Assembly (NCBI GenBank): GCA_965215675.1
Contig: OZ244112.1
Location: 2,994,352 to 3,058,351, forward strand
DNA: 64,000 nucleotides
DNA from: Dehalococcoidia bacterium
Lineage (GTDB): Bacteria > Chloroflexota > Dehalococcoidia > Lucifugimonadales > UBA3495
Direction of reading: 5' to 3'
Shown here: piece after piece, positions 1 to 22,477 of the stretch
Layout of the letters: every line of letters begins with the position of its first letter
Position numbering within the stretch: position 1 is the first letter of the stretch
Notes under the pieces: generated by a model
Databases searched by the model: none
Told to the model about the DNA's origin: nothing
What the model saw: the letters and a program-made list of their open reading frames with translations, nothing else
Translations under genes and position numbers: made by a program

Positions 1-1091
1 AGGGTCGACAGAGCGCATGCGGCCGTTACTCCCAGGCACAAATACCCGATGCCCTCGAAGCCTGTGCTGGCCAGCAAGATGCCCGCAAGGGCGGCCCCGA
101 ACACACCTCCACCCTGGTTACTCAAGCCCATCAGACCAACACCCGTAGCCCTGGATTCACCGGAATACAACGTGCTGATTGCTACCAGAGTGGGGAAAGT
201 CACACTGAGCAGTCCCGCCCCAATAGTTGCTACAGCCACCGCCGCCCATAGCGGCAGGTCCACAGAGAAGAACAGCAATCCGCAGGTGCCGCCCAGCAGA
301 GACACCCCGGCGATTAAGGCGTAACGATATCGGTTTCTAGCCAACACCCCCGTAGCATAACTCCCCGCCACCTGGCCCATGGCCAAGATAGCCAGTGGCA
401 GGGCCACATAGCCTACGCTCACCTCGTACTTGCCAATCAAGTATGCGGCGAAATAACTCACAATTGCCCAGAACGCAATACGATGGGTTATGTTCACCAA
501 GGCCGCCACCCGGAAGAAACGCAGGGACAGCAGCGACCAGAGTCTGGAGAAGAACGCGAAGTTGCGCACCCGTTCCCTGCTGTCAGCCGGGAACCAGAGC
601 CAGTTGGCCAAGAGTCCCGCGACGAGCATCAGGCCGGGGATCAGAACGGCAAATCTCCACCCTCCCCTGTCCGCCAGCAAGGCGATTACAGGGACGCTTA
701 TGGCCGACGACATCACGTTGATAGCCATGAGGCCCCCAACTGCCTGAGCCCGCTTCTGTGGGGAAATAACCTCAGACAGTGCTGCTATCGCGTTGGGCGG
801 CAGCATGCCACCTCCGAGACCAGTCGCCACTCTCAGCACCATCAGCAACTCGAAACTCGGAGCGAAAGCAGTCGCCATGACTGAAACGGAGAGCAGCAGC
901 AGACCCGCCAGCATAACCGGTCGCCGTCCGAAGGAATCGGACAGTGGACCCACCGAGACCACAGACACGGCCCATGCGGCGAAAGTGGCGGTGGCGAGTT
1001 GACCTGCCACCGGTACGGATATTTCGAAATCTCCCGCGATGTCCACCAACAAGGGTGGAATAATCAAAGCGGCGCTTTGAGCGGAGAACAC
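1..1091 (-). CDS. MFS transporter (partial; C-terminus runs off the left edge)
   Basis: Absent from the ORF track because it has no stop inside the window. My reverse-complement translation of 1-1133 is one open, very hydrophobic frame (..FFTILSFAVFSAQSAALIIPPLLVDIAGDF..GPLSDSFGRRPVMLAGLLLL..RVATGLGGG..) with the MFS D-x-x-G-R-R loop. The first canonical in-frame start is GTG at 1091. TM1-like sequence continues upstream to about 1133 without ATG/GTG/TTG, so the start is unresolved. Confidence 0.75.
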   Translation of the reverse strand, partial: MFSAQSAALIIPPLLVDIAGDFEISVPVAGQLATATFAAWAVSVVSVGPLSDSFGRRPVMLAGLLLLSVSVMATAFAPSFELLMVLRVATGLGGGMLPPNAIAALSEVISPQKRAQAVGGLMAINVMSSAISVPVIALLADRGGWRFAVLIPGLMLVAGLLANWLWFPADSRERVRNFAFFSRLWSLLSLRFFRVAALVNITHRIAFWAIVSYFAAYLIGKYEVSVGYVALPLAILAMGQVAGSYATGVLARNRYRYALIAGVSLLGGTCGLLFFSVDLPLWAAVAVATIGAGLLSVTFPTLVAISTLYSGESRATGVGLMGLSNQGGGVFGAALAGILLASTGFEGIGYLCLGVTAACALST

Positions 1092-1141
1092 AGCAAACGA
1101 GAGGATGGTAAAGAACCGGGCCTTGTTTACCTCTTTGTGTT

Positions 1142-1885
1142 CTAACTCTTCAGTTCGGGGGCCGATGTTGCTTTTTCCTCTTTCAACATAGCCGCTACTA
1201 TTGATTCCAGCTGTTCACGCTCAATGGCACCGGTCCAACTGCTGAAAACCTCGCCCTCAGCGGTGATGAAAATCGTGGTGGGCATCGCCCTGACCTCGTA
1301 GTCTCTGACGACCTGTCCGTCGTCGGTGAAGCCTGCGGGGTAGGTGATTCCCAGTGCGTCAAGCAGCTTGCTGGCGTCCTTTGGCAAGCCGAGCCCAGTA
1401 AACTGTCCCAAGTCGATCCCCAAGAGCTGCACTCTGTCTCCGTATTGTTCATAAAAGTCCTGCAATTCCGGCATTTCCGACCAGCAAGGACCGCAGAAAC
1501 GCGCCCAGAAATTCAGCACGAGGGGTTGGCCAGTTACGTCCGAAAGCCTAAGTTCCTCTGCTCCCAGAATATCAGCGCCTTGAAACAACTTGATCTCAAA
1601 GTCAGGGGCTACGGAACCCTGCAACTGCGCTGCAGGCGCGGACTCCGCGGCAACGGTGGAATCTGGAGCTGCCGTGAGGGCAATTGTGGGCGACGGCACG
1701 GGAGTCGCAGTGGGCAGTGCAGCACTGGTTGGGTCAGGCTCAAGGGTTGGACCGGGAGTATAGGCGGGAGCATTCTGACCGCTGCAAGTTGCGGCAAATG
1801 CGGAAAGAAAGAGTCCAACCACCAGAACCTTACCCAGAGAATCTCCCTTGCGTATTACATACAAAGAAAACGCGGAGAGTTTCAC
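1142..1885 (-). CDS. TlpA/ResA-like thiol-disulfide oxidoreductase (thioredoxin fold), exported
   Basis: 247-aa ORF with an N-terminal hydrophobic signal/anchor and a Pro/Thr/Ala linker. The redoxin domain carries FWARFCGPCWSEMPEL (CxxC). Confidence 0.8.
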   Translation of the reverse strand: MKLSAFSLYVIRKGDSLGKVLVVGLFLSAFAATCSGQNAPAYTPGPTLEPDPTSAALPTATPVPSPTIALTAAPDSTVAAESAPAAQLQGSVAPDFEIKLFQGADILGAEELRLSDVTGQPLVLNFWARFCGPCWSEMPELQDFYEQYGDRVQLLGIDLGQFTGLGLPKDASKLLDALGITYPAGFTDDGQVVRDYEVRAMPTTIFITAEGEVFSSWTGAIEREQLESIVAAMLKEEKATSAPELKS

Positions 1886-1949
1886 GACTGCGATTCCCTC
1901 CGCGCTCTCAAAAGATTCCTGTATTACGGCCTACGGGCGGGCAGGCGGT

Positions 1950-3353
1950 TTAGTTCTTTATTAATGTACCGTCTGCCTCAATGGTAATGCCAACGACGGG
2001 AGCGATAGCGTTGTTGAACACCTCGACAAACGGAGCGTCGGGTCCTCCCACTCGGTCGACCCAGTTGGGCACCACTTGGGTCAGCACCGCGTTGTCGCTG
2101 AGTGCTCGCATTTCCGGACCGAATTCAATATACGTCAACCCGGCGTCGATATTTTTCTGAAGGCCTAGTTCGTTTTGAATGGAACCAAGCCGGAGGGCCT
2201 CCAGCTCCATCTTGGCGGACTCTTCTTTCCAGATCTCCTGGAGGTCGGTCGGTATCGACTCCCAGACTTCCTGGTTGACCACGTTGTGGCTGGAAGGCCA
2301 CGATGAGAGCGGCCCGTTGATGTAGCTGATTACCTCGTACCAGCGCTGGCTGTGTCCGGCGTCGCCGCCGGTCACGCCTGCCTCGAGAATGCCGCGTTCC
2401 AGCGCCGTATACACTTCGGAGAAGGCCACGAACTGCGGCTCGCCACCCATTCCAGCGATCCAGTCGGATATGGACGTCCCAAAGGCCCGGGTCTTCATTC
2501 CCACCACGTCTTCGGGCAGGTTCAGGGGTTCTTTGGTGAACAGAAAGATGTCATCCCCATTGTGCCAGTTGACGTTGATGGGATACCCGCCTGTGTCATC
2601 GATCAAAAGCTGTTCAATGTCCGGCAGCATGGTGGCGGTTGCATCGAACTGTTGCGACCTCTCAGTATACAGGCCAAAGAGGTACTGAATCTCCAGCTGC
2701 GGCAGATCGCCAGCAACGTAGGGCCCCAGCACATTGACCATATCCAGTGTGCCGTCCCGCACCAGATTCAGGGTGTCGGGGCCGGCTACGCCCAACTCCG
2801 GAAACGACGTGGACTCGATCACGAGCTTGCCATTGGTCCGTTCTGTCAGCCTATCAATGAGGAACGTATCAACGATCTTGCAGAACACGATGGACCGGTT
2901 CACGCACGCATTCTGGATGACGAAGGGTTCTCCGTCGTAGGTCAACGGCGTCGGGTCGGTGAATTTGGCTCGTTCTAAAACGCTCTGGTAGTAGTCCGAG
3001 TCATAGACATACAGGTGCTTCTCCAAGGCGTCGAGCGGGACGTTGCCGTCGGCGTCGCCTTCCTCGGGCGTCGGGGCAGGGCCCACCAACATGCTGAGGT
3101 CTCCCACATAAATGGCGCCCGACTTGTTGGCCCGCTCAGCGGCGATAGCCAGCAACTCCGGACTGTAATCGCCCTCCATCTGCGCGGGGGCCCCCGTTGC
3201 CGGGGCCTGCGTTGGGGCGACGGTTGGCGCTTCGGTGGGTGCCGCTATAGGCGCCGTCGTTGCCGTCGGCGGCGCGGAAGTTGCAGCCTCGCCACATGCC
3301 AGAGCAAACGTTGCTACGATTACCAGTAATACCATGAGGGATAGTGTCCGCAT
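1950..3353 (-). CDS. TRAP-type transporter solute-binding lipoprotein (DctP family), paralog 1
   Basis: 467-aa ORF with lipobox FALAC and a long A/P/T-rich tether. The DctP-like core includes MKTRAF..FSEVYTALERGILEAGVTG..RWYEV. It is clearly homologous by eye to 16799..18031 and 53880..55493. Confidence 0.75.
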   Translation of the reverse strand: MRTLSLMVLLVIVATFALACGEAATSAPPTATTAPIAAPTEAPTVAPTQAPATGAPAQMEGDYSPELLAIAAERANKSGAIYVGDLSMLVGPAPTPEEGDADGNVPLDALEKHLYVYDSDYYQSVLERAKFTDPTPLTYDGEPFVIQNACVNRSIVFCKIVDTFLIDRLTERTNGKLVIESTSFPELGVAGPDTLNLVRDGTLDMVNVLGPYVAGDLPQLEIQYLFGLYTERSQQFDATATMLPDIEQLLIDDTGGYPINVNWHNGDDIFLFTKEPLNLPEDVVGMKTRAFGTSISDWIAGMGGEPQFVAFSEVYTALERGILEAGVTGGDAGHSQRWYEVISYINGPLSSWPSSHNVVNQEVWESIPTDLQEIWKEESAKMELEALRLGSIQNELGLQKNIDAGLTYIEFGPEMRALSDNAVLTQVVPNWVDRVGGPDAPFVEVFNNAIAPVVGITIEADGTLIKN

Positions 3354-3531
3354 TTAGACGCTCCTATGTCCAGATACCGTTTATCATTGCAATGAAAACA
3401 CAAACATAGATAGCTTTCCTCGCAATCAAGGCGGGATTATAGGTACAGCCCGCCGAATCGTCAACGGCCAAGCTGCAATACTCAGCAAGCAGGGTATGCG
3501 GAACTACCAGGGTCGCAGCAATTGCAGAGAG

Positions 3532-4149
3532 CTACGGAAAACTCCATTGAAATGGAGCGTAGTGGCCGTTTTTGCCGGTGTTGTCCCAGACCATGCCGTG
3601 GTCGGTGTACTCGGCGCGAACGCCGCGGGCCAAGTACAGGTCGCGGTTGACCCCGTGCCCGGTGTTGGACAACAGCATAGCGTCGTCCCGGCCTGGGATC
3701 TGGATCGGCTCGACACTGAAATCCATCACGCCCGGGACGTTCACCGAATGGACCTTGCCCTCAACCCGAAAGTCGATGGGTACGTAGCCAATGCCCATAA
3801 AGTTCTCGGTCATGGCGCGCCACCGTTCGGCAGGTCCGCCCATATCGCCCGACAGGATCTGCTCCAGCGCCGCCCTCTGCGACTCGTCGGCCCCCTCGTC
3901 TATGTACAGGGCCGAAGTCCAACCGCCGGCCGCCATCGGGCCCGGCGTGAAGTTGGCGGCAATGAAGTTCAGGCCATCGAGCGACACGCCGTTCAAATCG
4001 CCCTGCTCGATGTGGAATGCGAGGGCAACGTCGCAGTGACCCTCGGTGGGTTCGATGTTGGTTCCCCGAACGATGCAGGGACAGAGGATCTCGCAGTTGC
4101 AACTTTCGAAGTATTCGCCCTTGAGGTTCCAGCGACTGTCGGCTGCCAT
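3532..4149 (-). CDS. DUF1326 family protein
   Basis: N-terminus WNLKGEYFESCNCEILCPC matches the DUF1326 hallmark (W.L.G.Y.E.C.C...CPC). Internal ATG at 4149 (MAADSRW) is preferred over 4179 because of family length and a G-rich SD. Confidence 0.7.
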   Translation of the reverse strand: MAADSRWNLKGEYFESCNCEILCPCIVRGTNIEPTEGHCDVALAFHIEQGDLNGVSLDGLNFIAANFTPGPMAAGGWTSALYIDEGADESQRAALEQILSGDMGGPAERWRAMTENFMGIGYVPIDFRVEGKVHSVNVPGVMDFSVEPIQIPGRDDAMLLSNTGHGVNRDLYLARGVRAEYTDHGMVWDNTGKNGHYAPFQWSFP

Positions 4150-4240
4150 GTCTGCACCCCCGTGAATAGATGGGCGCATTGTAAACCATCACGTTAAATG
4201 GGGTCAGCGACCGGGAATACCGGGCTCTTTTTCAGTAACA

Positions 4241-4400
4241 AGTGGGAAAGAAATGTCCCACCGCTGTCCCATTTTGTCCCATTTTCCCCGCCGGCCGGCG
4301 GGGAATTCGCTGGAATTAAAGCTGAAAGACCGTCCCTCAAATGCGGTGGGACAAAAATTTTCTGTTTCCCGCCCCATTTTGTCCCATTTCTGCTTTCGGG
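4241..4400. repeat. Bipartite phased A/T-tract module with AAAATTTT core (copy A1)
   Basis: TGTCCCA boxes at 4254, 4265, 4275 and 4380 (direct) and TGGGACA at 4347 (inverted). Perfect GC palindrome CCCCGCCGGCCGGCGGGG at 4286-4303, and AAAAATTTT at 4353-4361. Homologous by eye to 40001-40135; its right half is homologous to 10378-10432 and 10891-10953. Confidence 0.6.
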
Positions 4401-4536
4401 CTTTTTTGCGGGTTTTTCAGTGTATTTAACCCGTTGCCCCAGAGGACATCCCTTGATCAGAGGGCCAACTGTAATAGAACATATACTCTTAAATAGAGTA
4501 CAGGGGATCATGCGGTCTGACAAGGGGGGAACGTCA

Positions 4537-4710
4537 CAGGGCGATCGTGTCCTAATTCTCAGCGCACAAAATTGGTCTGAATGGCGGTGGAGATGAGAGT
4601 GGCAGTGCCTCCTTCGGCTACGGGTGCGAGGGTAGACGGGGGTCTGGATTCCCGCCTGCGCGGCAATGACGACTTATAGGGCCTCCGGCGTTTAAGACGC
4701 GATTGCCCTG
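4537..4710. mobile_element. MITE-like 174-bp element, copy 1 (15-bp terminal inverted repeats, flanked by CGTCA)
   Basis: Left end is CAGGGCGATCGTGTC (4537-4551) and right end is GACGCGATTGCCCTG (4696-4710), which are near-perfect reverse complements. CGTCA lies immediately on both sides (4532-4536 and 4711-4715). An internal GGATTCCCGCCTGCGCGGCAATGAC hairpin sits at 4646-4670. Confidence 0.6.
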
Positions 4711-4715
4711 CGTCA

Positions 4716-4889
4716 CAGGGTAATCGCGTCTTATTACTCAGCACACGAAATTGGTCTGAATGGCGGTGGAGATGGGAGTGGCAGTGCCTCCTTCGGTTCC
4801 GGGTGTGAGGGTAGACGGGGGTTTGGATTCCCGCCTGCGCGGCAATGACGACTTATAGGGCCTCCGGCGTTTAAGACGCGATTGCCCTG
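4716..4889. mobile_element. MITE-like 174-bp element, copy 2 (tandem with copy 1, period 179 bp)
   Basis: Left end is CAGGGTAATCGCGTC (4716-4730) and right end is GACGCGATTGCCCTG (4875-4889). It is near-identical to copy 1 along its length, with a few substitutions. The internal hairpin is at 4825-4849. Confidence 0.6.
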
Positions 4890-5057
4890 GGGAGCGTCAC
4901 CAAATTGGCCCTGACGCACCCACTTGCGATGGAGGGGTTACTTCATTGCTATTGGACGATTCCGGGCAACCCGGTCCCACTGAATTCACGGGTACTGCGG
5001 AGGCATTACAATACGCGAACACAATAGGGCTACATTGAACGACGGGGGGCAAGAGGC

Positions 5058-5807
5058 ATGAGACTGGAAGGCAAGGTCGCGCTCATCAGCGGCGGGGCGA
5101 GAGGAATGGGGGCCACGGAGGCAAGGATGTTCGCGCAGGAGGGAGCGAAGGTCATTATTGGCGACGTCCTGGATGAGGAAGGTCGACAGACTGAGGCAGC
5201 CATCAATGAGAGCGGCGGAGAGTGCGTGTTCGTGAGGTTGGACGTGACCGACGAATCCGCTTGGGAATCGGCAGTCGAAACGGCGGTGAGCCGCTTTGGC
5301 AAGCTGGACATCCTAGTGAACAACGCTGGCATCGGCATCGTGAACAACGTGGAAGACACTAGCGGCGACGAGTGGGACCGGGTGATGGACATCAATGCCA
5401 AGGGGGTCTTCCTGGGAACAAAGGCGGCCATACCGGCGATGCGGGATGCGGGCGGCGGCTCGATCGTCAACATCTCATCCATCGCAGGGATCGTGGGCGG
5501 TCGAACCTCCTCCTATGCCGCCAGCAAAGGCGCCGTTCGGCTGCTCACCAAGTCCACGGCCATCCAGTATGCCCGCGAAGGCATCCGCTGCAACTCGGTG
5601 CACCCTGGAGTCATCGATACGCCGATGACGCAGCCCATGATGCTGAACAGCGCAGCCGGTCGCGAAGAGAACGCGGCCCGGCACCCCATGAATCGCATCG
5701 GCCAGCCGGAGGACATTGCCTTCGGCGTCCTGTTCCTGGCGTCGGACGAGGCGTCGTTCATGACCGGCAGCGAGCTGGTGATTGACGGCGGTCTTACCGC
5801 GCAGTAG
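5058..5807 (+). CDS. SDR family NAD(P)-dependent oxidoreductase (3-alpha/20-beta-hydroxysteroid or glucose dehydrogenase-like)
   Basis: GKVALISGGARGMG cofactor motif, NNAGI, and the YAASKGAV catalytic Y-x3-K. 249 aa. Confidence 0.9.
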   Translation: MRLEGKVALISGGARGMGATEARMFAQEGAKVIIGDVLDEEGRQTEAAINESGGECVFVRLDVTDESAWESAVETAVSRFGKLDILVNNAGIGIVNNVEDTSGDEWDRVMDINAKGVFLGTKAAIPAMRDAGGGSIVNISSIAGIVGGRTSSYAASKGAVRLLTKSTAIQYAREGIRCNSVHPGVIDTPMTQPMMLNSAAGREENAARHPMNRIGQPEDIAFGVLFLASDEASFMTGSELVIDGGLTAQ

Positions 5808-5929
5808 CCCGGTCGCTTTGCCGAGCATCGCAGGGAAGGCTGCGGGTGGGCGTTCCCGACCATGTCCAACGAGTGCCCGGTCCAATGAATGAACCGCGAT
5901 CCTGAGATACATCCAGAGAGGGATTAGCT

Positions 5930-7589: not shown

Positions 7590-7627
7590 TGGATTAGAAT
7601 AGCGGCATCTCGGCAGGAGGGGCAAGG

Positions 7628-8257
7628 ATGTCAGAGCACGAAAGCTCCCGAGAAGCGTGGGTGGCGATCCCGACGGAGGAGGAGCACCGGGCCAACCTGC
7701 CGCAGGGAGCGCGGGCGGGCAACTATGACTTCGGCTACCTGCCCGCGATGGGACGGCTGCAGGCCAGACACCGGGAGATCGGGCCGCTGTTCGGAGCTCT
7801 GTACCGGCAGGTTATGTTCGGCCCCGGGGAACTGGACCGCCAGGAGCGGGAGATGGTGGCTGCCGTCGCCGCCGCGGCCCAGGACTGCCGGTATTGAACC
7901 GTGTCTCACGCAGAGTTTCTGCGTGCCGAGGACGGAGACCCGGCCATCGTGGAGGCGGTGACGCACCAGCGGTGGCGGGAACTGCCGACGCTGACGGCCC
8001 GCCAGATGGCGCTGTGCACGGTGTCGGAGAAGCTGAGCGCCACCCCGACGCGGATGGTTGAGGCCGACTGGCAGCCGCTGCGGGACCTGGGCTTTGACGA
8101 CGTGGCCCTGCTTGAGGTCGGGCACATCGTCGGCATCTTCAACTACCTCACCCGCTTGGCGGACGGCTTCGGCCTGCAGCTTGACCGGCGCACCATCGAG
8201 GCCTCGGAGACCGGGGTTGCACTGAGCCGCCCGGTCGAGCAGGCGGCGGGAGATTAG
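7628..8257 (+). CDS. AhpD/carboxymuconolactone-decarboxylase family peroxidase-related protein, putative selenoprotein (in-frame UGA at 7895-7897)
   Basis: Track ORFs 7628..7897 and 7901..8257 share one frame and are separated only by TGA+ACC. The joined sequence reads ..AAQDCRY-U-TVSHAEF.., i.e. C-x-x-U-x3-H at the family CxxC..H redox motif. SD AGGAGGGG precedes ATG 7628, and a SECIS-like hairpin follows the TGA. Confidence 0.7.
7903..7933 (+). promoter_or_regulatory. putative bacterial SECIS hairpin
   Basis: Upper stem is CACGCAG(A) 7907-7914 pairing with (T)CTGCGTG 7918-7925, and the apical loop contains G-U-U (7915-7917) about 18 nt after the UGA. Lower stem is GTCT 7903-7906 pairing with A(G)GAC 7929-7933. 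Confidence 0.6.
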
Positions 8258-8266
8258 GAGGCGACC

Positions 8267-8704
8267 GTGATCCAACTCACCGAAGAGATGAAGCGCCTGG
8301 TCAACAACGCACGGGAGGACGGATTCCCGAGCATCGTGGCCACGTCCTCTCAGGACGGGACTCCCAACGCGGGCTATATCGGCACGGTACTGGCGGTGGA
8401 CGACTCGACCTTCGTTTACCGGGACCGCACTCGGCGGCAGCCCCTGGAGCATATCGAGGAGAACTCCAAGGTTATCGTGCTGTTCCGCAACGCCGCCGTG
8501 GACGCGGGCTGGAAGTTCCGATGCACGGCCAGCGTGGAGCGGCAAGGGGAGATCTACGACGATATGACTCGTCGCCTGGCCAACTCGGGGCTTATCTCCG
8601 ACCCGGAGATGGAGGGCGCGGCCATTGTGGTGCTGCGGGTCGACCAGGTGCTGACACTGTTCGGCGAGGTGCTGCAGGAACGCGAGCCGGGGATGCGCTG
8701 GTAG
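8267..8704 (+). CDS. pyridoxamine 5'-phosphate oxidase family (FMN/F420-binding split-barrel) protein
   Basis: 145 aa with the pattern ..FPSIVATSSQDGTPNAGYIG..VYRDR..KVIVLFRN.. typical of small PNPOx-like split-barrel proteins. GTG start with a GGAGG SD. Confidence 0.65.
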   Translation: MIQLTEEMKRLVNNAREDGFPSIVATSSQDGTPNAGYIGTVLAVDDSTFVYRDRTRRQPLEHIEENSKVIVLFRNAAVDAGWKFRCTASVERQGEIYDDMTRRLANSGLISDPEMEGAAIVVLRVDQVLTLFGEVLQEREPGMRW

Positions 8705-10955: not shown

Positions 10956-11552
10956 TTGCCCCTGGGAGTTGCGCGAGACTCCGCGTTGGAATCCGGCCTG
11001 CGCGGTGGGTTGTATTTCTATGTATTCAGGCTAGAGATGTGTCATGAGGCTTGTAAAGGGGCAAGTGTCAGCAATTTTGGGGACGGGCTTGCTCGGAGGC
11101 TTGGGGCTGTGGATTCCGGCCCTGCGCCTGCTTTTGTGGGTGTGACGGGGGTTTGGATTCCCGCTTTCGCGGGAATGACGATTAGGGGGCGGGAGTGACG
11201 GATGGGCACTGGATTCCCGCTTCCGCTGGAATGACGATTGGAGGCGATGCGGGATGACGGATGGGCGCTGGTGGTGGTGCGGGTTTGAGACCCGCCTTTA
11301 CGTTTTGCAGGCGAGTCTGACGGTCTTGGGACCGCGGACTCCGGCCCTGCGCCTGCTTTTGTGGGGGGGACGGGGGGTTGGATTCCCGCTTTCGCGGGAA
11401 TGACGGAACAGGCGGGAATGACGGAGGGGCGGGAGAGCTACGGTTAGGGGCGGTGGTGACGATTGGGGGCGATATGGGGTCACGCAGATGGGGGTGAGGC
11501 GGGGTGGCGGATGGGCGCTGATAGTGACGCGAGTATGAAACCCGCCCCCACA
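10956..11552. repeat. Composite intergenic repeat array (ATTCCCGC-N-GCGGGAAT hairpins; two roughly 220-bp macro-repeats)
   Basis: Hairpins GGATTCCCGCTTTCGCGGGAATGAC at 11155-11179 and 11380-11404, and GGATTCCCGCTTCCGCTGGAATGAC at 11211-11235. Blocks about 11104-11300 and 11330-11552 both begin GGA(T/C)TCCGGCCCTGCGCCTGCTTTTGTGGG and both end ..GATGGGCGCTG..T(T/A)TGA(G/A)ACCCGCC. Confidence 0.8.
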
Positions 11553-12581: not shown

Positions 12582-12760
12582 GGTGGCCTGCCTGTTATTT
12601 CAATTGGGGAGCCAAGCGGATTCCGCAGAACCAGTGTCCGCGAATCCGTTGGCGGTGCGCTCGTCGAACCACTGTCCTTCGACTAACTCAGGACTAACGA
12701 ACAATCTCAAAGGGCATTCGGCGAGGCCCGTATGCGGAATAGACAAGGAACCGGGGGTTT

Positions 12761-12807
12761 GGATTCCCGCTTCCGCAGGAATGACGGAAAACTCGCGGGA
12801 ATGACGG
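12761..12807. repeat. ATTCCCGC..GCGGGAAT hairpin repeat plus half-site
   Basis: GGATTCCCGCTTCCGCAGGAATGAC (12761-12785) is followed by GCGGGAATGACGG (12795-12807). Same family as 11155-11404 and the core of the MITE-like copies. Confidence 0.75.
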
Positions 12808-14510: not shown

Positions 14511-14745
14511 CGTCGCTCTCCCAAGTGACGCGATATTGCAGATATTATGTAAACAAACGGGTTAACAAGGCAACCGTCTTGTAGATTATTGTCGAAGGGA
14601 ACGCTTCGCCTGCTGGGGCGCTCGGCCCGTTTGACTGTCCCCTCCGATCACTGTGGTTGCGATTTGGCCACAGAACAATCAAAATCCACGAAACGCGCCG
14701 CACCATCCTCTTCGATGGTCAAACAATCGGATATGGAGGCGCAAA

Positions 14746-14946
14746 ATGGCGGAGATACTGGGACTTGGCGTGACACACTCGCCGTCGCTGATTGCGCCGG
14801 ACGAGCTGAAGAACTACTCATTGACGCGGGCTCTCAGGAACGAGCGGATTCCCAGCGATCAGAAAAACCCGGAGAAATCGCCCGAGGCGATTCGCAAGGA
14901 ATTGGGCGACGACGAGGGGTATTCGTCGGCGCTGTACCAGCGCTAG
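14746..14946 (+). pseudogene. N-terminal fragment (66 codons) of a LigB-like extradiol dioxygenase paralog
   Basis: MAEILGLGVTHSPSLIAPDELKNYSLTRALRNERIPSDQKNPEKSPEAIRKELGDDEGYSSALYQR-stop parallels residues 1-66 of 15604..16662, including the same GGAGGCGCAAA-ATG leader. Homology ends at the TAG. Confidence 0.75.
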
Positions 14947-15036: not shown

Positions 15037-15125
15037 AGCGGCACGGCAGAGTGGTCGAATGCGACGATCTGAAAAACCGTTTGACATCCCAACCCATACA
15101 AGTTCGAGTCCTGTCGCCGCCTCCA
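15037..15125 (+). tRNA. tRNA-like sequence (long-variable-arm body, GAA at the anticodon position, encoded CCA); probably degenerate
   Basis: Canonical T-arm ACAAG-TTCGAGT-CCTGT, then CGCCGCC-T-CCA. D-arm is GCA-GAGTGGTCGAA-TGC and the anticodon arm is ACGAT-CTGAAAA-ACCGT (one mismatch). The acceptor stem has A:C mismatches at 1:72 and 7:66, and the 17-nt variable region has no obvious stem. Confidence 0.4.
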
Positions 15126-15603
15126 TCCCACCGCGATTCAAGACCCGCTAGAATGCCCGATGGAAGCAATCGTTCTGAAGCTGCTCTTAGTCTCGGTTGT
15201 CTCCCTAGGACTTTTCGTCACTGTCTGGGCTGCCGTGGCAATTAAGTTTCCTTGAGCGCATACGGGATTGTACGGGTCGGTCGGCCTGATGGTTCTGTGG
15301 TTGGGTATCTATTTGCCAGCCCTCAGTTGGGCGGTCTGATGGCCGGGGATTGGCGCGCGGATAAATACCCGACGCTGCTGCTGTTGGATTACGCTGGCTA
15401 TGCATACAAGGCGGCGGTGAGCGAAGGGGGTGGTTGTCGAGTTGCCGCATTGTGCGAAATGTCACTGTGAATTCCTTGAAAGGTTGAACATACACCACAG
15501 GATTGACCAGACTCCAATCGCATCGGTGCGTCAGCCCCATGGGTGATTCCGGGGTATAATCGCGGCAACTTCCACCGCCAATCCAGACGACAGGAGGCGC
15601 AAA

Positions 15604-16662
15604 ATGGCAGAGATATTGGGACTTGGGGTTACGCATTCGCCGTCACTGATCACGCCGGATGAGGTGAAGAATTATTCACTGACCCGTGCTCTCAGGAACG
15701 ATCGCATACCCAGCGAGCAGAAGAACCCCGAGAACTGGCCCGAGGCCATGCGAAAGGAGTGGGGCGACGACGAGGGGTATACCTCGGCGCTGTACCAGCG
15801 CGAGAAGCTGGTGGCTGGGTTCCGCAAGGTACGGGCTGAGCTGGACGCCTTCAAGCCGGACGTGGTGCTGGTGTGGGGCGACGACCAGTATGAGAATTTC
15901 AAGGAAGACATTATCCCCGCCTTCTGCGTGATGGCATACGACGAGTACGAGTGCCGTCCGTTTACGACCAAGGACGGCGGGGCTCGTCCCAATGTGTGGG
16001 GGGAGCCGTCCGAGAAGACCTTCCGGTACAAGGGACACCCAGCGGCGCGGCACCTGGCGGGAGCACTGATCGACGACGGGTTCGACGTGGCCTACGCCTA
16101 TAAGGCACTGCACGAGCCAGGGCTGGGGCACGCGTTCCTGAACACGCTACTTTACCTGGACTACGACCGCGCCGGGTTCGACTACCCTGTGATTCCCTTT
16201 GCCGTCAACTGCTACGGCAGCCGGATTATTCGCAACCGTGGTGGGGCCAGTCCGCAAACGGTGAACGGCGTGGAGGTCCCGCTGGACCCGCCCGGTCCCT
16301 CGCCCAAGCGCTGCATGGAGCTGGGAGCGGCGGCCGCGCGGGCCATGCTGGCCAGCCCGTGGCGGGTGGCGCTGATCGCGTCGTCGAGCTGGTCGCACGC
16401 GTTCCTGACGGAGAAGAACTGGTGGATGTACTGCGACGTCGAGTCTGACCGGCAACGGTTCGAGGAGTTCAAGGCCGGCGATTTCGAGGCGTGGCGGGGG
16501 CTTACCACGGCACAGGTGGAGGACGCGGGACAGCAGGAGATGCTGAACTGGATGTGCCTGGCTGGCGCGCTGGCCGAGCTGAAGCGGACGCCAGAGATCG
16601 TGGAGTTCCAGCAGACGTATGTGCATAACTCCAGCAAGTGCCTGGCGGTGGCGAGGCCGTAG
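15604..16662 (+). CDS. class III extradiol ring-cleavage dioxygenase (LigB family)-like protein
   Basis: 352 aa. The N-terminus MAEILGLGVTHSPSL resembles the LigB/GalA-type ..GIGTSH.P motif, and size and His pattern fit the family. Confidence 0.6.
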   Translation: MAEILGLGVTHSPSLITPDEVKNYSLTRALRNDRIPSEQKNPENWPEAMRKEWGDDEGYTSALYQREKLVAGFRKVRAELDAFKPDVVLVWGDDQYENFKEDIIPAFCVMAYDEYECRPFTTKDGGARPNVWGEPSEKTFRYKGHPAARHLAGALIDDGFDVAYAYKALHEPGLGHAFLNTLLYLDYDRAGFDYPVIPFAVNCYGSRIIRNRGGASPQTVNGVEVPLDPPGPSPKRCMELGAAAARAMLASPWRVALIASSSWSHAFLTEKNWWMYCDVESDRQRFEEFKAGDFEAWRGLTTAQVEDAGQQEMLNWMCLAGALAELKRTPEIVEFQQTYVHNSSKCLAVARP

Positions 16663-16798: not shown

Positions 16799-18031
16799 TT
16801 AGTTGACTGGGATGGATGTGACTGTGCCGTCGGGGTTGATTCTCATGCCCACTATGGGGCCGACTTTTTCGTTGAATATCCTGACTTCCTCAGTGTCCGC
16901 GCCGCCTACGCGTCCGACCCAGTTGGGCAGGGAGGAATTGATGGCGGTGTTCCGAATGGCCTCACGCATTTCCGGAGTGAATTCGCTGTAGATCATCCCT
17001 TCGGCCACGTTATTATCGACACCTTCCTGGTCCCAGGATTCAACAACGCGAAGATTTTCAGCCTCGGTTATGGCGCCTTCTTCTTTCAAGATGACCTGCA
17101 GGTGCGGTGGCAGGGAATTCCAGGTATCCGAATTCATGACTACGGCATTGTGGGGATGGGCGTAGAGTGGCCCCACAATGTACTTGGTGACCTCATACCA
17201 CCTCTGCCCGTACCCTGGCCCGCTGCCGGTGACGCCCGCGTCGAGGATGCCCCGCTCCAGTGAGGGGTACACGTCGGCGAAGGTCACGAATTGAGCCTCA
17301 GCGCCGAGGCCATTGATCAAGTCGGCCAAGGGAACGCTGTGAGCGCGGGTCTTGAGTCCCTCGAAGTCGCTAAGTGTTTCGAGGGGCCTCTTGCTGTAGA
17401 AGAACTGGTCGGGGTAGTAGTCGTAAAAGATGACCTCGCCACCAAAGCGGTCCCTGATGATCCTGACCTCGTCGTCCCGGACCGCTGCGAAAATCTTGTT
17501 CTGAGTAGGCGTATCCGGGAATAGTCCGTAGAGTTCCGCTATTTCAATGAAGGGCCAGGTCCCGCCAACAAAGTTGCCAGGTAGTTCGGTGAACTCCACG
17601 GTGCCGTCCTCAAGAAGGTCCAGCATATCGGTCCCGCTGATTCCCAGTTCGGGCAACGACGTGATGTCGAGCTTCAGTTGGCCGTTGCTGCGTTCCTCGA
17701 CCCGTGCGACGTACTCAGTGAACAAATCACAGGTCTGCAGGCTTCGGTTGATGCAGACGAACTGCATTGTGAAAACCTGGTCAGAGGCTCCGGTTGCTTG
17801 ATCGGTTGTCTCCGTGGCCTGTTCGGTGGGTACACTTGGTTGTTCGGTGGGCTCGATGGCCTGTTGGGTGGGCTCGATGGCCTCCTCGGTGGGTTCACTG
17901 GCCTGTTGGGTGGGTTCGCTTGGCTGTTCTGCGGTTGCCTGAGGTTGCGATGTAGCTGTGGGAGATGAGCCGCAGGCAACCAAAAGCAACATCAGGATCG
18001 CAGGTACGATGGCGAGGTACAAAGTCCGCAT
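16799..18031 (-). CDS. TRAP-type transporter solute-binding lipoprotein (DctP family), paralog 2
   Basis: Lipobox LLVAC. The tether has 7-aa repeats (EPT[QE][QE]A[IS]) encoded by 21-nt tandem repeats at about 17806-17940. DctP-like core LKTRAH..FADVYPSLERGILDAGVTG..RWYEV. ATG at 18031 with an AGGAGA SD. Confidence 0.75.
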   Translation of the reverse strand: MRTLYLAIVPAILMLLLVACGSSPTATSQPQATAEQPSEPTQQASEPTEEAIEPTQQAIEPTEQPSVPTEQATETTDQATGASDQVFTMQFVCINRSLQTCDLFTEYVARVEERSNGQLKLDITSLPELGISGTDMLDLLEDGTVEFTELPGNFVGGTWPFIEIAELYGLFPDTPTQNKIFAAVRDDEVRIIRDRFGGEVIFYDYYPDQFFYSKRPLETLSDFEGLKTRAHSVPLADLINGLGAEAQFVTFADVYPSLERGILDAGVTGSGPGYGQRWYEVTKYIVGPLYAHPHNAVVMNSDTWNSLPPHLQVILKEEGAITEAENLRVVESWDQEGVDNNVAEGMIYSEFTPEMREAIRNTAINSSLPNWVGRVGGADTEEVRIFNEKVGPIVGMRINPDGTVTSIPVN

Positions 18032-18666
18032 AGAAAGTCTCCTAGCGTTGATTACGAAACACAATCCACCTATCGCCGCTGGCTCCCCTCCAAGTAACGG
18101 ACAGTAATTCTCACATCAGGTTCCGGTCAGGGAAATCGCGCCGGTTGAAAGAGGCGCGGGGACAACCTACCGCTCCGACACAGCCGTGACGAGGTTGGGC
18201 AATCAATTTCCAGCCTGACGACATATTCCAGATATAGATGACTTATAGCACATAATATACCCATTGTCTCTTCTACAGTATATGTTTATATTCGTACACA
18301 TTGCTGATGCAGAAAACGATTTCGGACCGCTGATTCATTTCGTGATACGTCGCGATAACAGTAAGGGTGGCGAATGGGCGACAGGGTTCAGATCGCACGC
18401 GGCGAGCAATTACATCGGGTGTGAAACAGTTCGAGGATCCGCAATTGCTGTCGGGGCGCGGGCAGTAGCGGCTTACGGTTCCTCAGTGAGCAAGACTGCG
18501 AGGGCGAAGTTCCGCAACGGGACCCCGCAGCTTTGTTCTGTCTGCGACTTCACCTGACCTAAAACCAACGGCGTCGGGGCTGCTCCAGATACGTTTTCCG
18601 TGCTGCGGCGGAATGCAATCGTGTATACTTGGGCTTGCCTGCAATCGCAGCGGGGAGGGTGTCTCA

Positions 18667-19980
18667 ATGGCCGTAAATACGAGCCGTACCCTTGGCAGTA
18701 TCGTTGACCTTGACGGGGGGCAGATCAGCCGCGAAATCTTCGTCAACGGGGACATCTACGCGCAGGAGCAGGAGCAGGTCTTTTCCAAGGCCTGGTTGTT
18801 CGTGGGGCACGAGACACAGATACCCAAGCCCGGCGATTACTTTGTTTCCAGCATGGGGGAAGAGTCGGTCATTCTGTGCCGCGACCGGGAGGGCGAGATT
18901 CACGTCTTCCTGAATTCCTGCACCCACCGGGGCATGAAGGTCTGCCGGTATGACGAGGGCAACACCCCAGTGTTCAGTTGCCCCTACCACGGCTGGAGCT
19001 TTGCGACCGACGGCAAGCTCGTGGGTGTTCCTTACTTCAAAGACGCCTACAAGGGCGGGCTGGACAGGTCGCAGTGGGGCCTCATCGAAGTGCCGCAGAT
19101 GTACAACTACAAGGGCGGCATCTGGGCGTCGTGGGACAAGAACGGCCCCTCGTTCCAAGAATACGTGGGCGACTTCACAATGTACCTAGACCTGCTGCTG
19201 GACGGCCGGGACGGCAGCGAGGGCGGTTCGGAGATACTGGGAGGCGTCCAGAAATGGACCATGCCGAACAACTGGAAATTCGCGGCCGAGAACTTCGCGG
19301 GTGACGGCTACCACAACATCAGCCACCGCTCTGTGGACATGGTGGGCATAGGCCCCAGCGGGCTAGGACGACGCGACGACGCAGAGTACAAGGCGGCTCG
19401 CCGCATCAACGTGACATTCCCTCAGCGGGGTCATGCCGCGGTGGTGGAACTGTTCCCACCCGAAACGCCGCAGGTCGCCACCTACCAGAACAGAGAAGAC
19501 GTCGGCGAATACTTCCGAATGATGGAGTTTGAGCGACGTCGCCGGCTGGATGGAAAGGCAAACCTTCTGGGCGTCGTGGGAACCCTGTTCCCCAACATGT
19601 CATACCTGGCACGCCAGCCACGATCAATCGCCGTGTGGCACCCGCGGGGGCCGAACCTGACGGAGGCCTGGCGCTGGTTCCTGGTGGACAAGGACACGCC
19701 GGAGGAAGTGAAGGACGTGCTGCGGCACTACTACATCCGCTACTCCGGGCCGGGCGGAATGACCGAGCAGGACGACATGGAGAACTGGAACTACGCCCAC
19801 AAGGCAAGCCGGGGAGTCATCGCGCGGCGCAAGCCCTACAATTACCAGATGGGTATCGGTCACCTGGCCAACGACGTGGAGTTGCCCGGCGTTCTGACCG
19901 AGGGCATCTGCGAGGAAAACGCCCGCGGTTTCTACTCGGGATGGGTCAAGATGATGGATGCGCCCTCCAACGGGCACTAG
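18667..19980 (+). CDS. aromatic ring-hydroxylating dioxygenase alpha subunit (Rieske 2Fe-2S), paralog 1
   Basis: Rieske motif CTHRGMKVC..17 aa..CPYHGWSF, with a catalytic domain containing NWK..ENF.GD.YH..SH. ATG at 18667 with a GGGGAGGG SD. Confidence 0.9.
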   Translation: MAVNTSRTLGSIVDLDGGQISREIFVNGDIYAQEQEQVFSKAWLFVGHETQIPKPGDYFVSSMGEESVILCRDREGEIHVFLNSCTHRGMKVCRYDEGNTPVFSCPYHGWSFATDGKLVGVPYFKDAYKGGLDRSQWGLIEVPQMYNYKGGIWASWDKNGPSFQEYVGDFTMYLDLLLDGRDGSEGGSEILGGVQKWTMPNNWKFAAENFAGDGYHNISHRSVDMVGIGPSGLGRRDDAEYKAARRINVTFPQRGHAAVVELFPPETPQVATYQNREDVGEYFRMMEFERRRRLDGKANLLGVVGTLFPNMSYLARQPRSIAVWHPRGPNLTEAWRWFLVDKDTPEEVKDVLRHYYIRYSGPGGMTEQDDMENWNYAHKASRGVIARRKPYNYQMGIGHLANDVELPGVLTEGICEENARGFYSGWVKMMDAPSNGH

Positions 19981-20111
19981 CGGACCAATGGGATTGACAC
20001 GGTCCAATTATCAGCAAGTCGCATGACAAACGACAGGGTTTGTCTCTAATATCAGGCCAAGAGGAACCAAATCCAACAATTCCTAATCCCAACAAATTTA
20101 GGAGAGGAATC

Positions 20112-20990
20112 ATGGCCAGTGTTACCCAATTGGGATACATCGGTATCAGCGCAAGCAACCTCGAGGAATGGGAGCATTTCGGCACCGAGGTCCTGGGGCT
20201 GCAGTCGAACGGCGTTGACTCCAACGGCGTCCTGACGATGCGGATGGACGAGTACACACACCGCTTCATCGTCAGCCCGACGGGGAAGGACGACGTTGAC
20301 TTCGTGGGCTTCCAGGTCACTGATCAGGCGGGGCTGGCCGCGATGGCGGAGCAGCTTCGGGAGGCTGGCATCGAGGTGTCGATCGGCACTCCAGAAGAGG
20401 CAAAGGAACGGAGGGTCGAGGGGCTGATCAAGTTCGAAGACCCCGACGGGACACCGACCGAGGTCTACTACGGCCCGCCGGTCAGCTTCGACAACCCGTT
20501 CAATTCGCCCCGCCCCGTCAGCGGCTTCGTCACCGGTGAGCAGGGCCTGGGCCATGTGGTCTACCACGTCGAAGATCTGGACAGGGCGGTGGCGTTCTAC
20601 CGGGACGTGCTGGGGATGAGGATCAGCGACTACATTCGCAACCTGGTTTTCTTCCACTGCAACCCGCGTCACCACACCCTGGCGATCATCGAAGCCAAGG
20701 GGCGGAACACCAAGAAGCTCAACCACTTCATGGTGCAGACGCAGGGAATGAACGATGTGGGTCAGACCTACGACATGGTGCTGGACTCCGACATCAACGT
20801 AACCCGCGGACTGGGTCGTCATACCAACGACCATATGACCTCCTTCTACATGAAAACTCCGTCGGGCTTCGACGTGGAGTACGGCTGGGGCGCGCGGACT
20901 GTGGACGACGCGACTTGGCAGGTGGTACGCCACGAAAAGGGCAGCATCTGGGGCCACCGGCCTGTGCCGCAGCCTGCGGCGACCAGCTAG
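20112..20990 (+). CDS. extradiol dioxygenase, VOC superfamily (BphC / catechol 2,3-dioxygenase-like)
   Basis: MASVTQLGYIGISASNLEEWEHFGTEVLGLQ resembles the BphC N-terminus. Two VOC modules are present, including GLGHVVY and HTNDHMTSFY. ATG at 20112 with an AGGAGAGG SD. Confidence 0.85.
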   Translation: MASVTQLGYIGISASNLEEWEHFGTEVLGLQSNGVDSNGVLTMRMDEYTHRFIVSPTGKDDVDFVGFQVTDQAGLAAMAEQLREAGIEVSIGTPEEAKERRVEGLIKFEDPDGTPTEVYYGPPVSFDNPFNSPRPVSGFVTGEQGLGHVVYHVEDLDRAVAFYRDVLGMRISDYIRNLVFFHCNPRHHTLAIIEAKGRNTKKLNHFMVQTQGMNDVGQTYDMVLDSDINVTRGLGRHTNDHMTSFYMKTPSGFDVEYGWGARTVDDATWQVVRHEKGSIWGHRPVPQPAATS

Positions 20991-21012
20991 GGGCAGACAG
21001 GGCAGTTTCCAA

Positions 21013-21558
21013 ATGGCTGACCTGCCACCGTTGCCGGACCCAGGGTTTCAAAGCCCAGATGACCGCCGCACGATTGGACGGCGGTTTATCCTTCAGGCTC
21101 GCGACTACCTGGAAAAGGGCGACCGCCTGCAGGCCGGAGAGAAGGCCTGGGGGGCGATCGCCCATAACCTGAAGGCGATAGGCGAAGAGCGGGGTTGGAA
21201 ACACGGTAGTCATCAGCAAATCGAGAACATAGGCCGGCAAATCGTCGTCGAGTTCGAAAACCCCGAACTCGGAAACGCAATTGCAGAAGCCTTCCAAAAC
21301 GGTCACAGGAACTTCTATGAAAACCACCGCACCATTGAGGAGATGAGAATTACGATTGAGGCGGCGGAGGAAGCCTTGCCACTGCTGGAGGCTCTTCAGC
21401 GAGCCAGTCCTCATTCGTTCACGATCACTTCCAACACCCAGGTCAGGCGGTTGAGAGCGCTTACGGATAACGAGGAATTACAGATCGGTGAAACGTCCCC
21501 GGTGGGGTTCTCACTGAAACACTCGTCTGATGGCTACGACAGCACTTCGGAGACTTAG
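21013..21558 (+). CDS. PaREP1-like helical protein (family mostly known from archaea)
   Basis: A.DYLEKGDRLQAGEKAWGAIAHNLKAIGEERGWKHGSHQQI...A..NGHRNFYEN matches the PaREP1 pattern (..GD..QASEK.WGA...A.KA.A...G....SH..L...H..FYE). Its stop TAG abuts the next ATG (21559). Confidence 0.55.
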   Translation: MADLPPLPDPGFQSPDDRRTIGRRFILQARDYLEKGDRLQAGEKAWGAIAHNLKAIGEERGWKHGSHQQIENIGRQIVVEFENPELGNAIAEAFQNGHRNFYENHRTIEEMRITIEAAEEALPLLEALQRASPHSFTITSNTQVRRLRALTDNEELQIGETSPVGFSLKHSSDGYDSTSET

Positions 21559-22437
21559 ATGGACGTTGGATACATTGGCACTGGGACAATGGGCAATCCG
21601 ATGGCGCGCTGCCTGCTGGACGCGGGGCACAACGTCATGGTCTATGACGTGCGCCGGGAGGCAACCACCAACCTGTGCGAGCTTGGCGCTCACTGGGCCG
21701 ACAGTCCTCGGGCAGTGGCAGAGGCGGCGCCGGTGGTATTCACTTCGCTGCCTGGGCCAACGGAGGCGGAGCGCGTGGTGCTGGATCCGGACACCGGCAT
21801 CCTGGCCGGGCTGCCGCGGGGAGGAGCCTGGATCGACACGACCACCAACGCGCCGTCGCTGATACGTCGGCTGGCCGAGGAGTGCCAACGGCGTGGCATC
21901 GAAATGCTGGATTCACCGGTGAGCGGCCGGCCACCCGCGATGACCATGATGGTCGGGGGAGACCCGGCGGTCTTTGAGAAGCACCGTCCGGTGCTGGAGT
22001 GCATGGGCCGGGATGTCTTCTACGTCGGGGAGACGGCCTCGGGTTGCATCGCCAAGCTGGTCACGCAATACCTTGGGTACTGTGCCTTTATTGCGGGCGT
22101 CGAGGGCATGTTGATCGGCGCAAAGGCGGGGATCGACCTGGAAATCCTGGCTAAGATTATTCCGGTCAGCGCGGGATACAGCGGTGTGTTGAACCGGTCG
22201 ACCGAGGCCATCCTTGACCGGAGCTTCTATTCGAACGGCACGCTGGACATCGTGGCCAAGGACATACACCTGGCGTGTGAACTGGCCCGGGAGTCGCAGG
22301 CTCCTGCGTCCATCGGGGCCATAGCCGACGATATGTTCCAGAGAGCCCAGGCGCAGGGGATGGGGAAAGACGGATACCCCGCTGTGGCACGGATCCTGGA
22401 ACAGCTTGCAGGGGCGGAATTAAAGCCAAACGGCTAA
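21559..22437 (+). CDS. NAD(P)-dependent beta-hydroxyacid dehydrogenase (3-hydroxyisobutyrate / tartronate semialdehyde reductase family)
   Basis: VGYIGTGTMGNPMARCLLDAGHNVMVYD Rossmann motif, plus ..DSPVSG.. and the family-conserved central segment. Confidence 0.85.
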   Translation: MDVGYIGTGTMGNPMARCLLDAGHNVMVYDVRREATTNLCELGAHWADSPRAVAEAAPVVFTSLPGPTEAERVVLDPDTGILAGLPRGGAWIDTTTNAPSLIRRLAEECQRRGIEMLDSPVSGRPPAMTMMVGGDPAVFEKHRPVLECMGRDVFYVGETASGCIAKLVTQYLGYCAFIAGVEGMLIGAKAGIDLEILAKIIPVSAGYSGVLNRSTEAILDRSFYSNGTLDIVAKDIHLACELARESQAPASIGAIADDMFQRAQAQGMGKDGYPAVARILEQLAGAELKPNG

Positions 22438-22477
22438 TCGCTGGACTTAACCGCAGACCTGACAGGGGGAGAAGACG

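Follow-up and report, generated by a model that had tools for sequence, protein, structure and literature searches.

An AhpD-like gene from a Dehalococcoidia bacterium with an in-frame UGA codon very probably decoded as selenocysteine

Segment 7628–8257 (plus strand) of the analyzed window, i.e., of the whole 64-kb stretch of Dehalococcoidia DNA, is very probably one gene encoding a 209-residue AhpD-like, peroxidase-related protein of the CMD superfamily, with the UGA codon at 7895–7897 decoded as selenocysteine. Gene callers cut this gene into ORFs of 89 and 118 aa, and dozens of C-terminal fragments are present in public databases, some of them as "hypothetical protein". Once the two ORFs are joined, the redox enzyme is whole again, with C-x-x-U as its active site; the finding matters chiefly for annotation.

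Reading frame, gene layout and protein family

The ORFs 7628..7897 (89 aa) and 7901..8257 (118 aa, GTG start) were found in the same frame, separated only by TGA (7895–7897) and ACC, exactly as the first-pass annotation had placed them. Together they form a frame of 210 codons on the plus strand, in which this TGA is the sole internal stop and TAG (8255–8257) is the terminal one. The joined product of 209 aa reads ...AAAAQDCRY-[TGA]-TVSHAEFLRAED... The features of the gene and of its downstream neighbor are as follows:

7615..7620, plus strand: Shine–Dalgarno sequence AGGAGG, 7 nt before the ATG (7628) of the full-length gene, read from the sequence
7628..8257, plus strand: CDS of the probable AhpD-like selenoprotein (TIGR01926 / COG2128 / Pfam CMD), 209 aa, Sec as residue 90, stop TAG at 8255–8257
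7850..7852, plus strand: codon of Glu75, the Glu of the E-x11-C-x2-C/U-x3-H AhpD motif with a putative proton-relay role, aligned with ERE of 6K40 and 2OYO
7886..7888, plus strand: codon TGC of Cys87, which opens the C-x-x-U redox motif and is the presumed resolving Cys
7895..7897, plus strand: UGA, probable selenocysteine codon (U90), in the column that holds the second CxxC Cys in Cys homologs; TGA conserved
8267..8704, plus strand: PNPOx-like gene (PF01243), Pfam 50.8 bits

The GC3 values on the two sides of the TGA were 0.82 and 0.88, and in a coding-signal scan of the window for read-through TGA codons this gene was the top candidate; the same scan revealed no further convincing selenoprotein gene in the window. 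The PNPOx-like gene follows directly, and its AGGAGG (8256–8261) overlaps the stop codon of the AhpD-like gene, which suggests an operon. It occupies this position, in the same orientation, in 33 loci, none of them outside the Dehalococcoidia clade. In this clade, the AhpD-like gene and the gene of the PNPOx-like (flavin/deazaflavin) protein are probably co-transcribed.

With Cys put in place of the stop, the joined protein matched the NCBIfam model TIGR01926, "peroxidase-related enzyme", with 110.9 bits (cutoff 81.8). It also matched TIGR00778 ahpD_dom (31.3 bits, cutoff 27.8) and PF02627 CMD (37.5 bits, cutoff 23). The latter match covers residues 55–110 and thus spans position 90, and no Pfam match was obtained for the C-terminal ORF by itself. 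Membership in NF041238 (AhpD_rel_CFYUT) was rejected for the 209-aa protein, which scored 59.3 bits against a cutoff of 175 and matched only profile positions 148–343. The two-domain relatives P0018, P0024, and P0026 are probably members of that family.

The active-site constellation of the joined protein is E75-x11-C87-x2-U90-x3-H94. Cys87 was seen in the motif of every locus scored, the search pattern itself having demanded that Cys. The nearest solved structure was 6K40 (E = 1.9e-24 over residues 8–183), followed by 2OYO (E = 1.2e-22). Their segment ...ERE-x-x-A-V-V-x-G-x-N-R-C-x-Y-C-A-V-S-H... puts the second Cys on the TGA, and homology to these structures points to an all-alpha AhpD fold of the window protein. 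In the alignment of homologs the TGA column was occupied by Cys in nine full-length proteins (D-C-x-Y-C), by W in four (the stored translations P0003, P0006, P0022, and P0035), and by G in one. The assignment of the UGA to the second Cys of the CxxC motif, proposed from the letters of this DNA alone, agrees with these nine Cys homologs and with both structures.

A search of a collection of 5.8 billion proteins returned full-length proteins of about 200 aa together with many C-terminal-half fragments of 114–124 aa, the latter being expected if orthologs are cut at the same TGA. Three two-domain proteins of the homolog alignment stop exactly at ...AAAAQDCHY. The C-terminal half contains 11 columns invariant across homologs; this conservation indicates that the part downstream of the TGA is translated.

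Conservation of the TGA codon

When one genome of each GTDB species was scanned, all 80 ortholog loci had TGA at this codon. The orthologs from Dehalococcoidia MAGs had 83–96% identity, while those from other Chloroflexota, Thermomicrobiales, Candidatus Binatia, Thermodesulfobacteriota, and "Deltaproteobacteria" had about 63–71%. The in-frame TGA was found in 84 of the 85 loci scored and in all 79 scorable metagenome loci. The metagenome scan had been seeded with a Cys-type alignment in order to widen the Cys control; it returned TGA-type genes only, and the control stayed at n = 5. The pooled set of distinct sequences comprised 143 TGA-type genes, 5 Cys-type genes, and 1 gene with Gly.

A sequencing or assembly error, or a pseudogene, would mean that TGC or TGT had turned into TGA, inactivating a Cys-type gene and leaving the downstream half untranslated. 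Such an event requires a single base change, and gene callers do see two ORFs here; however, the same TGA recurs in the independent loci counted above, from several phyla, and the downstream half is intact, with its invariant columns and a coding-like GC3. The retention of TGA across the 143 distinct sequences rules this explanation out for all practical purposes.

The DNA behind the deviating residues was inspected as well. Locus L003, which corresponds to the W-type entry P0003, has TGA, and the stored protein disagrees with the code-11 translation; the W of this entry is therefore an artefact of the translation table. The G of P0001 (locus L004) is encoded by a genuine GGA codon. A gene with an EF-Tu domain was noted downstream of this Gly variant on a weak match. 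In the Mb-scale MAG contigs L001 and L002, TGA was present and the gene was called as two, of 89 + 118 aa and 87 + 120 aa, respectively, which is the splitting by standard callers that had been predicted for this locus.

Termination at the UGA could also be real, with the 89-aa piece and a separately initiated 118-aa piece (GTG 7901) assembling non-covalently. The GTG lying two codons past the TGA in the window and the many C-terminal "proteins" of 114–124 aa in databases speak for such a split gene, but we assign it a very small probability. No Shine–Dalgarno sequence was read ahead of 7901, in line with the first-pass annotation, and in 71 of 83 TGA-type loci no ATG, GTG, or TTG occurs within 7 codons after the TGA. 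The codon at +2 is CAG, TCC, GAG, and others in other lineages. With two pieces, the C-x-x-[C/U]-x3-H active site would be interrupted and its nucleophile missing, and the conservation of a SECIS-type hairpin would have no explanation. Decoding of the UGA as selenocysteine in one continuous protein remains the preferred reading.

SECIS hairpin downstream of the UGA

Two nested hairpin features were delimited downstream of the UGA:

7907..7925, plus strand: bacterial SECIS core, 8-bp stem CACGCAGA/UCUGCGUG, apical loop GUU at 7915–7917
7899..7935, plus strand: extended hairpin with the lower stem (7899–7906 with 7929–7935), part of the MFE fold in the window

The G of the loop is located 18 nt after the A of the UGA, and the first three bases of the stem are the codon of the putatively catalytic His94. 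The spacing in the bSECISearch model is about 16–37 nt. A small apical loop with G is a published hallmark of bacterial SECIS elements (PMC1088965). Folding of the single sequence gave −20.3 kcal/mol with z = −1.32, and 23 of 200 shuffled sequences folded equally well, so on the single sequence the hairpin does not exceed chance, and its significance comes through comparative data only. An Rfam scan of 7600–8300 at permissive E-values gave chance-level matches and no SECIS family.

Among 83 non-redundant TGA-type genes, 97.3% of the cells of the 8-bp stem (alignment columns 13–20 with 24–31) were paired, and sliding of the 3′ arm by 1–3 nt lowered this value to 14–74%. All eight pairs were formed in 66 of these genes and seven in the other 17. 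Covariation was limited to one compensatory change of C-G to U-A (locus L066) and 15 wobble changes, and the RNAalifold consensus contained 5 of 8 pairs with a negligible covariation term. This scarcity arises from the near-invariance of the stem and from its overlap with the conserved peptide H-A-E-F-L-R. What supports the stem is its invariance together with the codon bias, and not covariation. The codon bias within this peptide is as follows, TGA-type genes being compared with the well-supported genes of the window:

Phe codon TTT: 80 of 83 TGA-type genes (96%), 17% in window genes
Arg codon CGT: 80 of 83 TGA-type genes (96%), 7% in window genes
Ala codon GCA or GCG: 81 of 83 TGA-type genes, 41% in window genes
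Ala codon GCC: 0 of 83 TGA-type genes, 49% in window genes

Cys-type genes with the same HAEFLR peptide use GCC, TTC, CTC/CTA, and CGG. At least seven of the eight pairs were formed in all 137 TGA-type genes with HAEFLR versus 1 of 4 Cys-type genes with this peptide (Fisher p = 8.75e-6); the hairpin is thereby shown to be conserved in TGA-type genes. The other three of these Cys-type genes form 4–5 of the 8 pairs. Over the whole Cys-type control, which is small and includes one gene (L089) that keeps the hairpin, the stem was broken in 4 of 5 genes. Most of the hairpin is still present in the Cys gene L089 and in the Gly variant L004, consistent with recent conversions of a single base. Synonymous sites of H-A-E-F-L-R are accordingly frozen by RNA structure, a case of dual coding, and the contrast with Cys-type paralogs can be reused as a test of SECIS function.

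The hairpin proposed in the first-pass annotation stood in its upper part, with the stem 7907–7925, the GUU loop, and the distance of the G from the UGA as described there. Its lower stem (GUCU/AGGAC) was rejected as a conserved SECIS element: only 59.7% of its cells were paired across orthologs, and it is a lineage-specific feature.

Selenocysteine machinery and proposed mechanism

No tRNA-Sec was found inside the 64-kb window. The only tRNA of the window (15037–15125, 89 nt, "tRNA-Phe(GAA)") was rejected as a tRNA-Sec; it has a GAA anticodon and a poor cloverleaf and scored 30 bits against a gathering threshold of 29. In 18 Dehalococcoidia relatives, a tRNA-Sec(UCA) was detected 6–10 kb upstream of the AhpD-like ortholog by ARAGORN, run on all loci, and confirmed by Rfam RF01852 with 65–68 bits. 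Synteny mapping puts the corresponding site 135–400 nt to the left of base 1 of the window.

The leftmost complete gene of the window, encoding a TlpA-like thioredoxin-fold protein (1142–1885, minus strand), led to L171, a 249-kb contig with 99.966% identity to positions 1–5885 of the window (5,885 bp). A canonical tRNA-Sec with the UCA anticodon (RF01852, 69.8 bits) is located in this contig 239–335 nt beyond the left edge of the window, with the same orientation as the AhpD-like gene. The tRNA-Sec on which the first-pass reading depended is therefore present in a 99.97% identical contig as well as at the syntenic site of the 18 relatives. In Dehalococcoidia, the AhpD-like gene and selC remain syntenic at a distance of about 8 kb. 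These data mark the lineage of the source Dehalococcoidia MAG as a probable selenocysteine user. Dehalococcoidia MAGs with 46–49 selenoproteins are listed in BSepDB, including UBA1141 (PMC13326102), which is the genome of our locus L044; the probable use of selenocysteine here agrees with recent catalogues, in which such MAGs are among the richest bacterial selenoproteomes.

By Pfam search, selA, selB, and selD were not found among the 23 ORFs of the window or in the flanks of the tRNA-Sec genes of the relatives, and a regex scan of 1.5 Mb of loci revealed no signature motifs of SelA or SelD. The ORFs flanking tRNA-Sec in the relatives encode an MFS transporter, a tRNA methyltransferase–Maf fusion, TatC, and thymidylate kinases.

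Read-through of the UGA with an amino acid other than selenocysteine might proceed via a tRNA-Sec-like tRNA charged with Cys, via hairpin-stimulated near-cognate insertion of Trp or Cys, or via local reassignment of TGA to Trp or Gly. We consider this improbable. The W in four stored homolog translations and the fact that selA and selD were not observed would be compatible with it, but the sole W entry checked in DNA has TGA, the G of L004 is a real GGA codon, and homologs show Cys at the TGA column, not Trp or Gly. Global reassignment of TGA is excluded, since TGA ends 3 of the 15 Pfam-supported genes of the window. The adjoining tRNA is a canonical tRNA-Sec, and the related Dehalococcoidia MAGs are documented as rich in selenoproteins. 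Insertion of selenocysteine is thus the reading with which we proceed.

In the standard bacterial pathway, SelB-GTP with Sec-tRNA(Sec) would bind the 7907–7925 hairpin, with its G-loop 18 nt after the UGA, and would deliver Sec at the UGA in competition with RF2. The tRNA-Sec would come from the gene about 7.9 kb upstream, which lies a short way beyond the window edge. In the protein, U90, activated through H94 and E75, may attack a peroxide or an oxidized partner (peroxiredoxin sulfenate or disulfide). C87 may then resolve the adduct to give a selenenylsulfide within the molecule, and re-reduction may come from a thiol or lipoyl donor. A hydroperoxidase or a disulfide/peroxiredoxin reductase activity may be supposed from the analogy to DR1765 and to M. 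tuberculosis AhpD. In the latter enzyme, the role of the attacking nucleophile reportedly falls to the second CxxC Cys (Koshkin et al. 2003).

It is possible, but in our opinion rather doubtful, that the TIGR01926 ortholog group is almost obligately Sec-dependent, with a 19-nt SECIS near-invariant across at least four phyla, and that either the gene was horizontally spread together with its SECIS or recognition by SelB is unusually sequence-specific. If the clade is indeed near-obligate in its Sec use, the Cys variant L089 and the Gly variant L004 would be very recent conversions.

Comparison with known systems

The AhpD-like gene is an ordinary member of a selenoprotein family known since 2005, and its locus in Dehalococcoidia opens no new question. 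The "AhpD-like protein" (COG2128, CxxU) was described in that year as a new selenoprotein family of the Sargasso Sea, comprising 27 sequences, for which a SECIS was predicted (PMC1088965). In the GOS survey, AhpD-like proteins ranked fourth in abundance among selenoprotein families, with 299 sequences (PMC2398784). The AhpD-like TIGR01926 family with CxxU is catalogued in a selenoproteome review of 2026 (PMC13188914), and BSepDB takes the AhpD-like family as its browsing example (PMC13326102). The statement in the first-pass annotation that such proteins are known from marine surveys was thus correct.

The closest counterpart is the "AhpD-like 1" family (Zhang & Gladyshev 2005/2008), which fits the same NCBIfam model as the window protein and, like it, has one Sec in a CxxU motif, a SECIS that follows the UGA directly and has G in its loop, and an origin mainly in uncultured marine and environmental bacteria. 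No substantial difference was seen; the window copy belongs to a Dehalococcoidia MAG lineage, in whose clade the gene and a PNPOx-like gene apparently form an operon of two genes. NF041238 (AhpD_rel_CFYUT, "hypothetical protein 1" of the Sargasso Sea) has a homologous C-terminal domain with C-x-Y-U-T; however, its proteins have two domains and about 357 residues, while the window protein is single-domain.

DR1765 (6K40) and the D. geothermalis protein 2OYO match the window protein over nearly its full length and have the same E-x11-C-x-Y-C-x-x-S-H active-site segment, but they are Cys proteins without UGA or SECIS and resemble it only moderately overall. A DR1765 mutant of Deinococcus radiodurans is sensitive to H2O2, and its complementation needs CxxC; proteins of the DR1765 type share about 12% identity with M. 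tuberculosis AhpD (PMC8945050). The latter enzyme (Rv2429) has the CMD/AhpD fold that is also expected of the window protein and the E-x11-C-x2-C-x3-H motif, in which its second Cys corresponds to the Sec position here; unlike the window protein, it is a Cys enzyme with defined partners, AhpC and lipoamide (DlaT/Lpd).

The SelB-binding SECIS of E. coli fdhF likewise lies within the CDS, directly 3′ of the UGA, and is a stem–loop with a G at a fixed distance in its small apical loop. The window SECIS, a candidate SelB site, differs from it in sequence and has a GUU loop of 3 nt (or 5 nt).

The tRNA-Sec gene and its surroundings

A canonical selenocysteine tRNA gene (selC) was found just beyond the edge of the window, on a contig (L171) that is 99.97% identical to it. 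In this contig, the tRNA gene is followed by DDE transposase genes. The spacing between selC and the gene of the AhpD-like selenoprotein (6–10 kb) was kept in 18 Dehalococcoidia relatives.

L171:6124-6220 (239–335 nt to the left of window base 1): canonical tRNA-Sec (UCA), RF01852, 69.8 bits
1142-1885 (-): TlpA/AhpC-TSA-like thioredoxin-fold protein; CGPC motif, N-terminus resembling that of lipoproteins

The latter is a second thiol-redox gene, located 6 kb from the AhpD-like selenoprotein; it is adjoined by the MFS gene that abuts selC.

Variants at the selenocysteine position

A Cys-type ortholog (L089, TGC) of the AhpD-like gene retained the full SECIS stem (8/8), and a Gly variant (L004, GGA) retained 7 of the 8 pairs; both may represent recent single-base conversions from TGA. 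The small ORF following the L004 gene had a weak match to EF-Tu domain 2. Three homologous proteins (P0018, P0024, and P0026) have two domains, with Leu at the Sec/Cys column of the first AhpD-like domain, and their sequences end at ...AAAAQDCHY within the second. Judging by these sequences, they are presumably members of the NF041238 (CFYUT) family cut off at a putative Sec-UGA.

Repeats and a probable insertion at a LigB-family gene

4532-4889: tandem duplication, 179 bp, 2.0 copies, 92% matches
14735-14946 and 15593-15804: 212-nt direct repeat, copies 85% identical
15037-15125: "tRNA-Phe(GAA)" call, 89 nt, 30 bits vs. a gathering score of 29

The tandem duplication lies in a stretch of about 900 bp without genes and had no Rfam match. 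Segments of it (35–58 nt) recur at 11135-11190, 11360-11405, and 12752-12786, as well as in locus L007; this points to a short repeat dispersed among intergenic regions.

An insert of about 646 bp lies between the two copies of the direct repeat, and the gene of a LigB-family dioxygenase (15604-16662) has the right copy as its 5′ end. Four related loci (L005, L006, L025, and L011) lack the insert, and three others (L015, L024, and L026) have it at about 75% identity; the arrangement resembles an old insertion event in which the 5′ end of the LigB-family gene was duplicated. In the tRNA call within the insert, the acceptor stem is mismatched, the D stem is 3 bp long, and the variable region (about 20 nt) is unpaired; ARAGORN identified no similarly long tRNA (at least 86 nt) in the insert-bearing relatives. 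Either a decayed tRNA-like sequence or a false positive is the probable explanation of this call.

Other genes of the window

18613-19980 and 22478-23914: Rieske ring-hydroxylating dioxygenase alpha subunits
49908-51536 (-): 542-aa ORF; domains AAA_21 (AbiEii-like ATPase) and DUF4435

TRAP DctP solute-binding proteins were encoded in four copies in the window. Because regions 16799-23914 and 53880-55493 are rich in genes of TRAP DctP and Rieske dioxygenase alpha subunits, together with a LigB dioxygenase, they suggest a neighbourhood for the catabolism of aromatic compounds. As for the 542-aa ORF, its combination of AAA_21 and DUF4435 domains is one typically seen in defence nucleases of the OLD family or of a Gabija-like kind.
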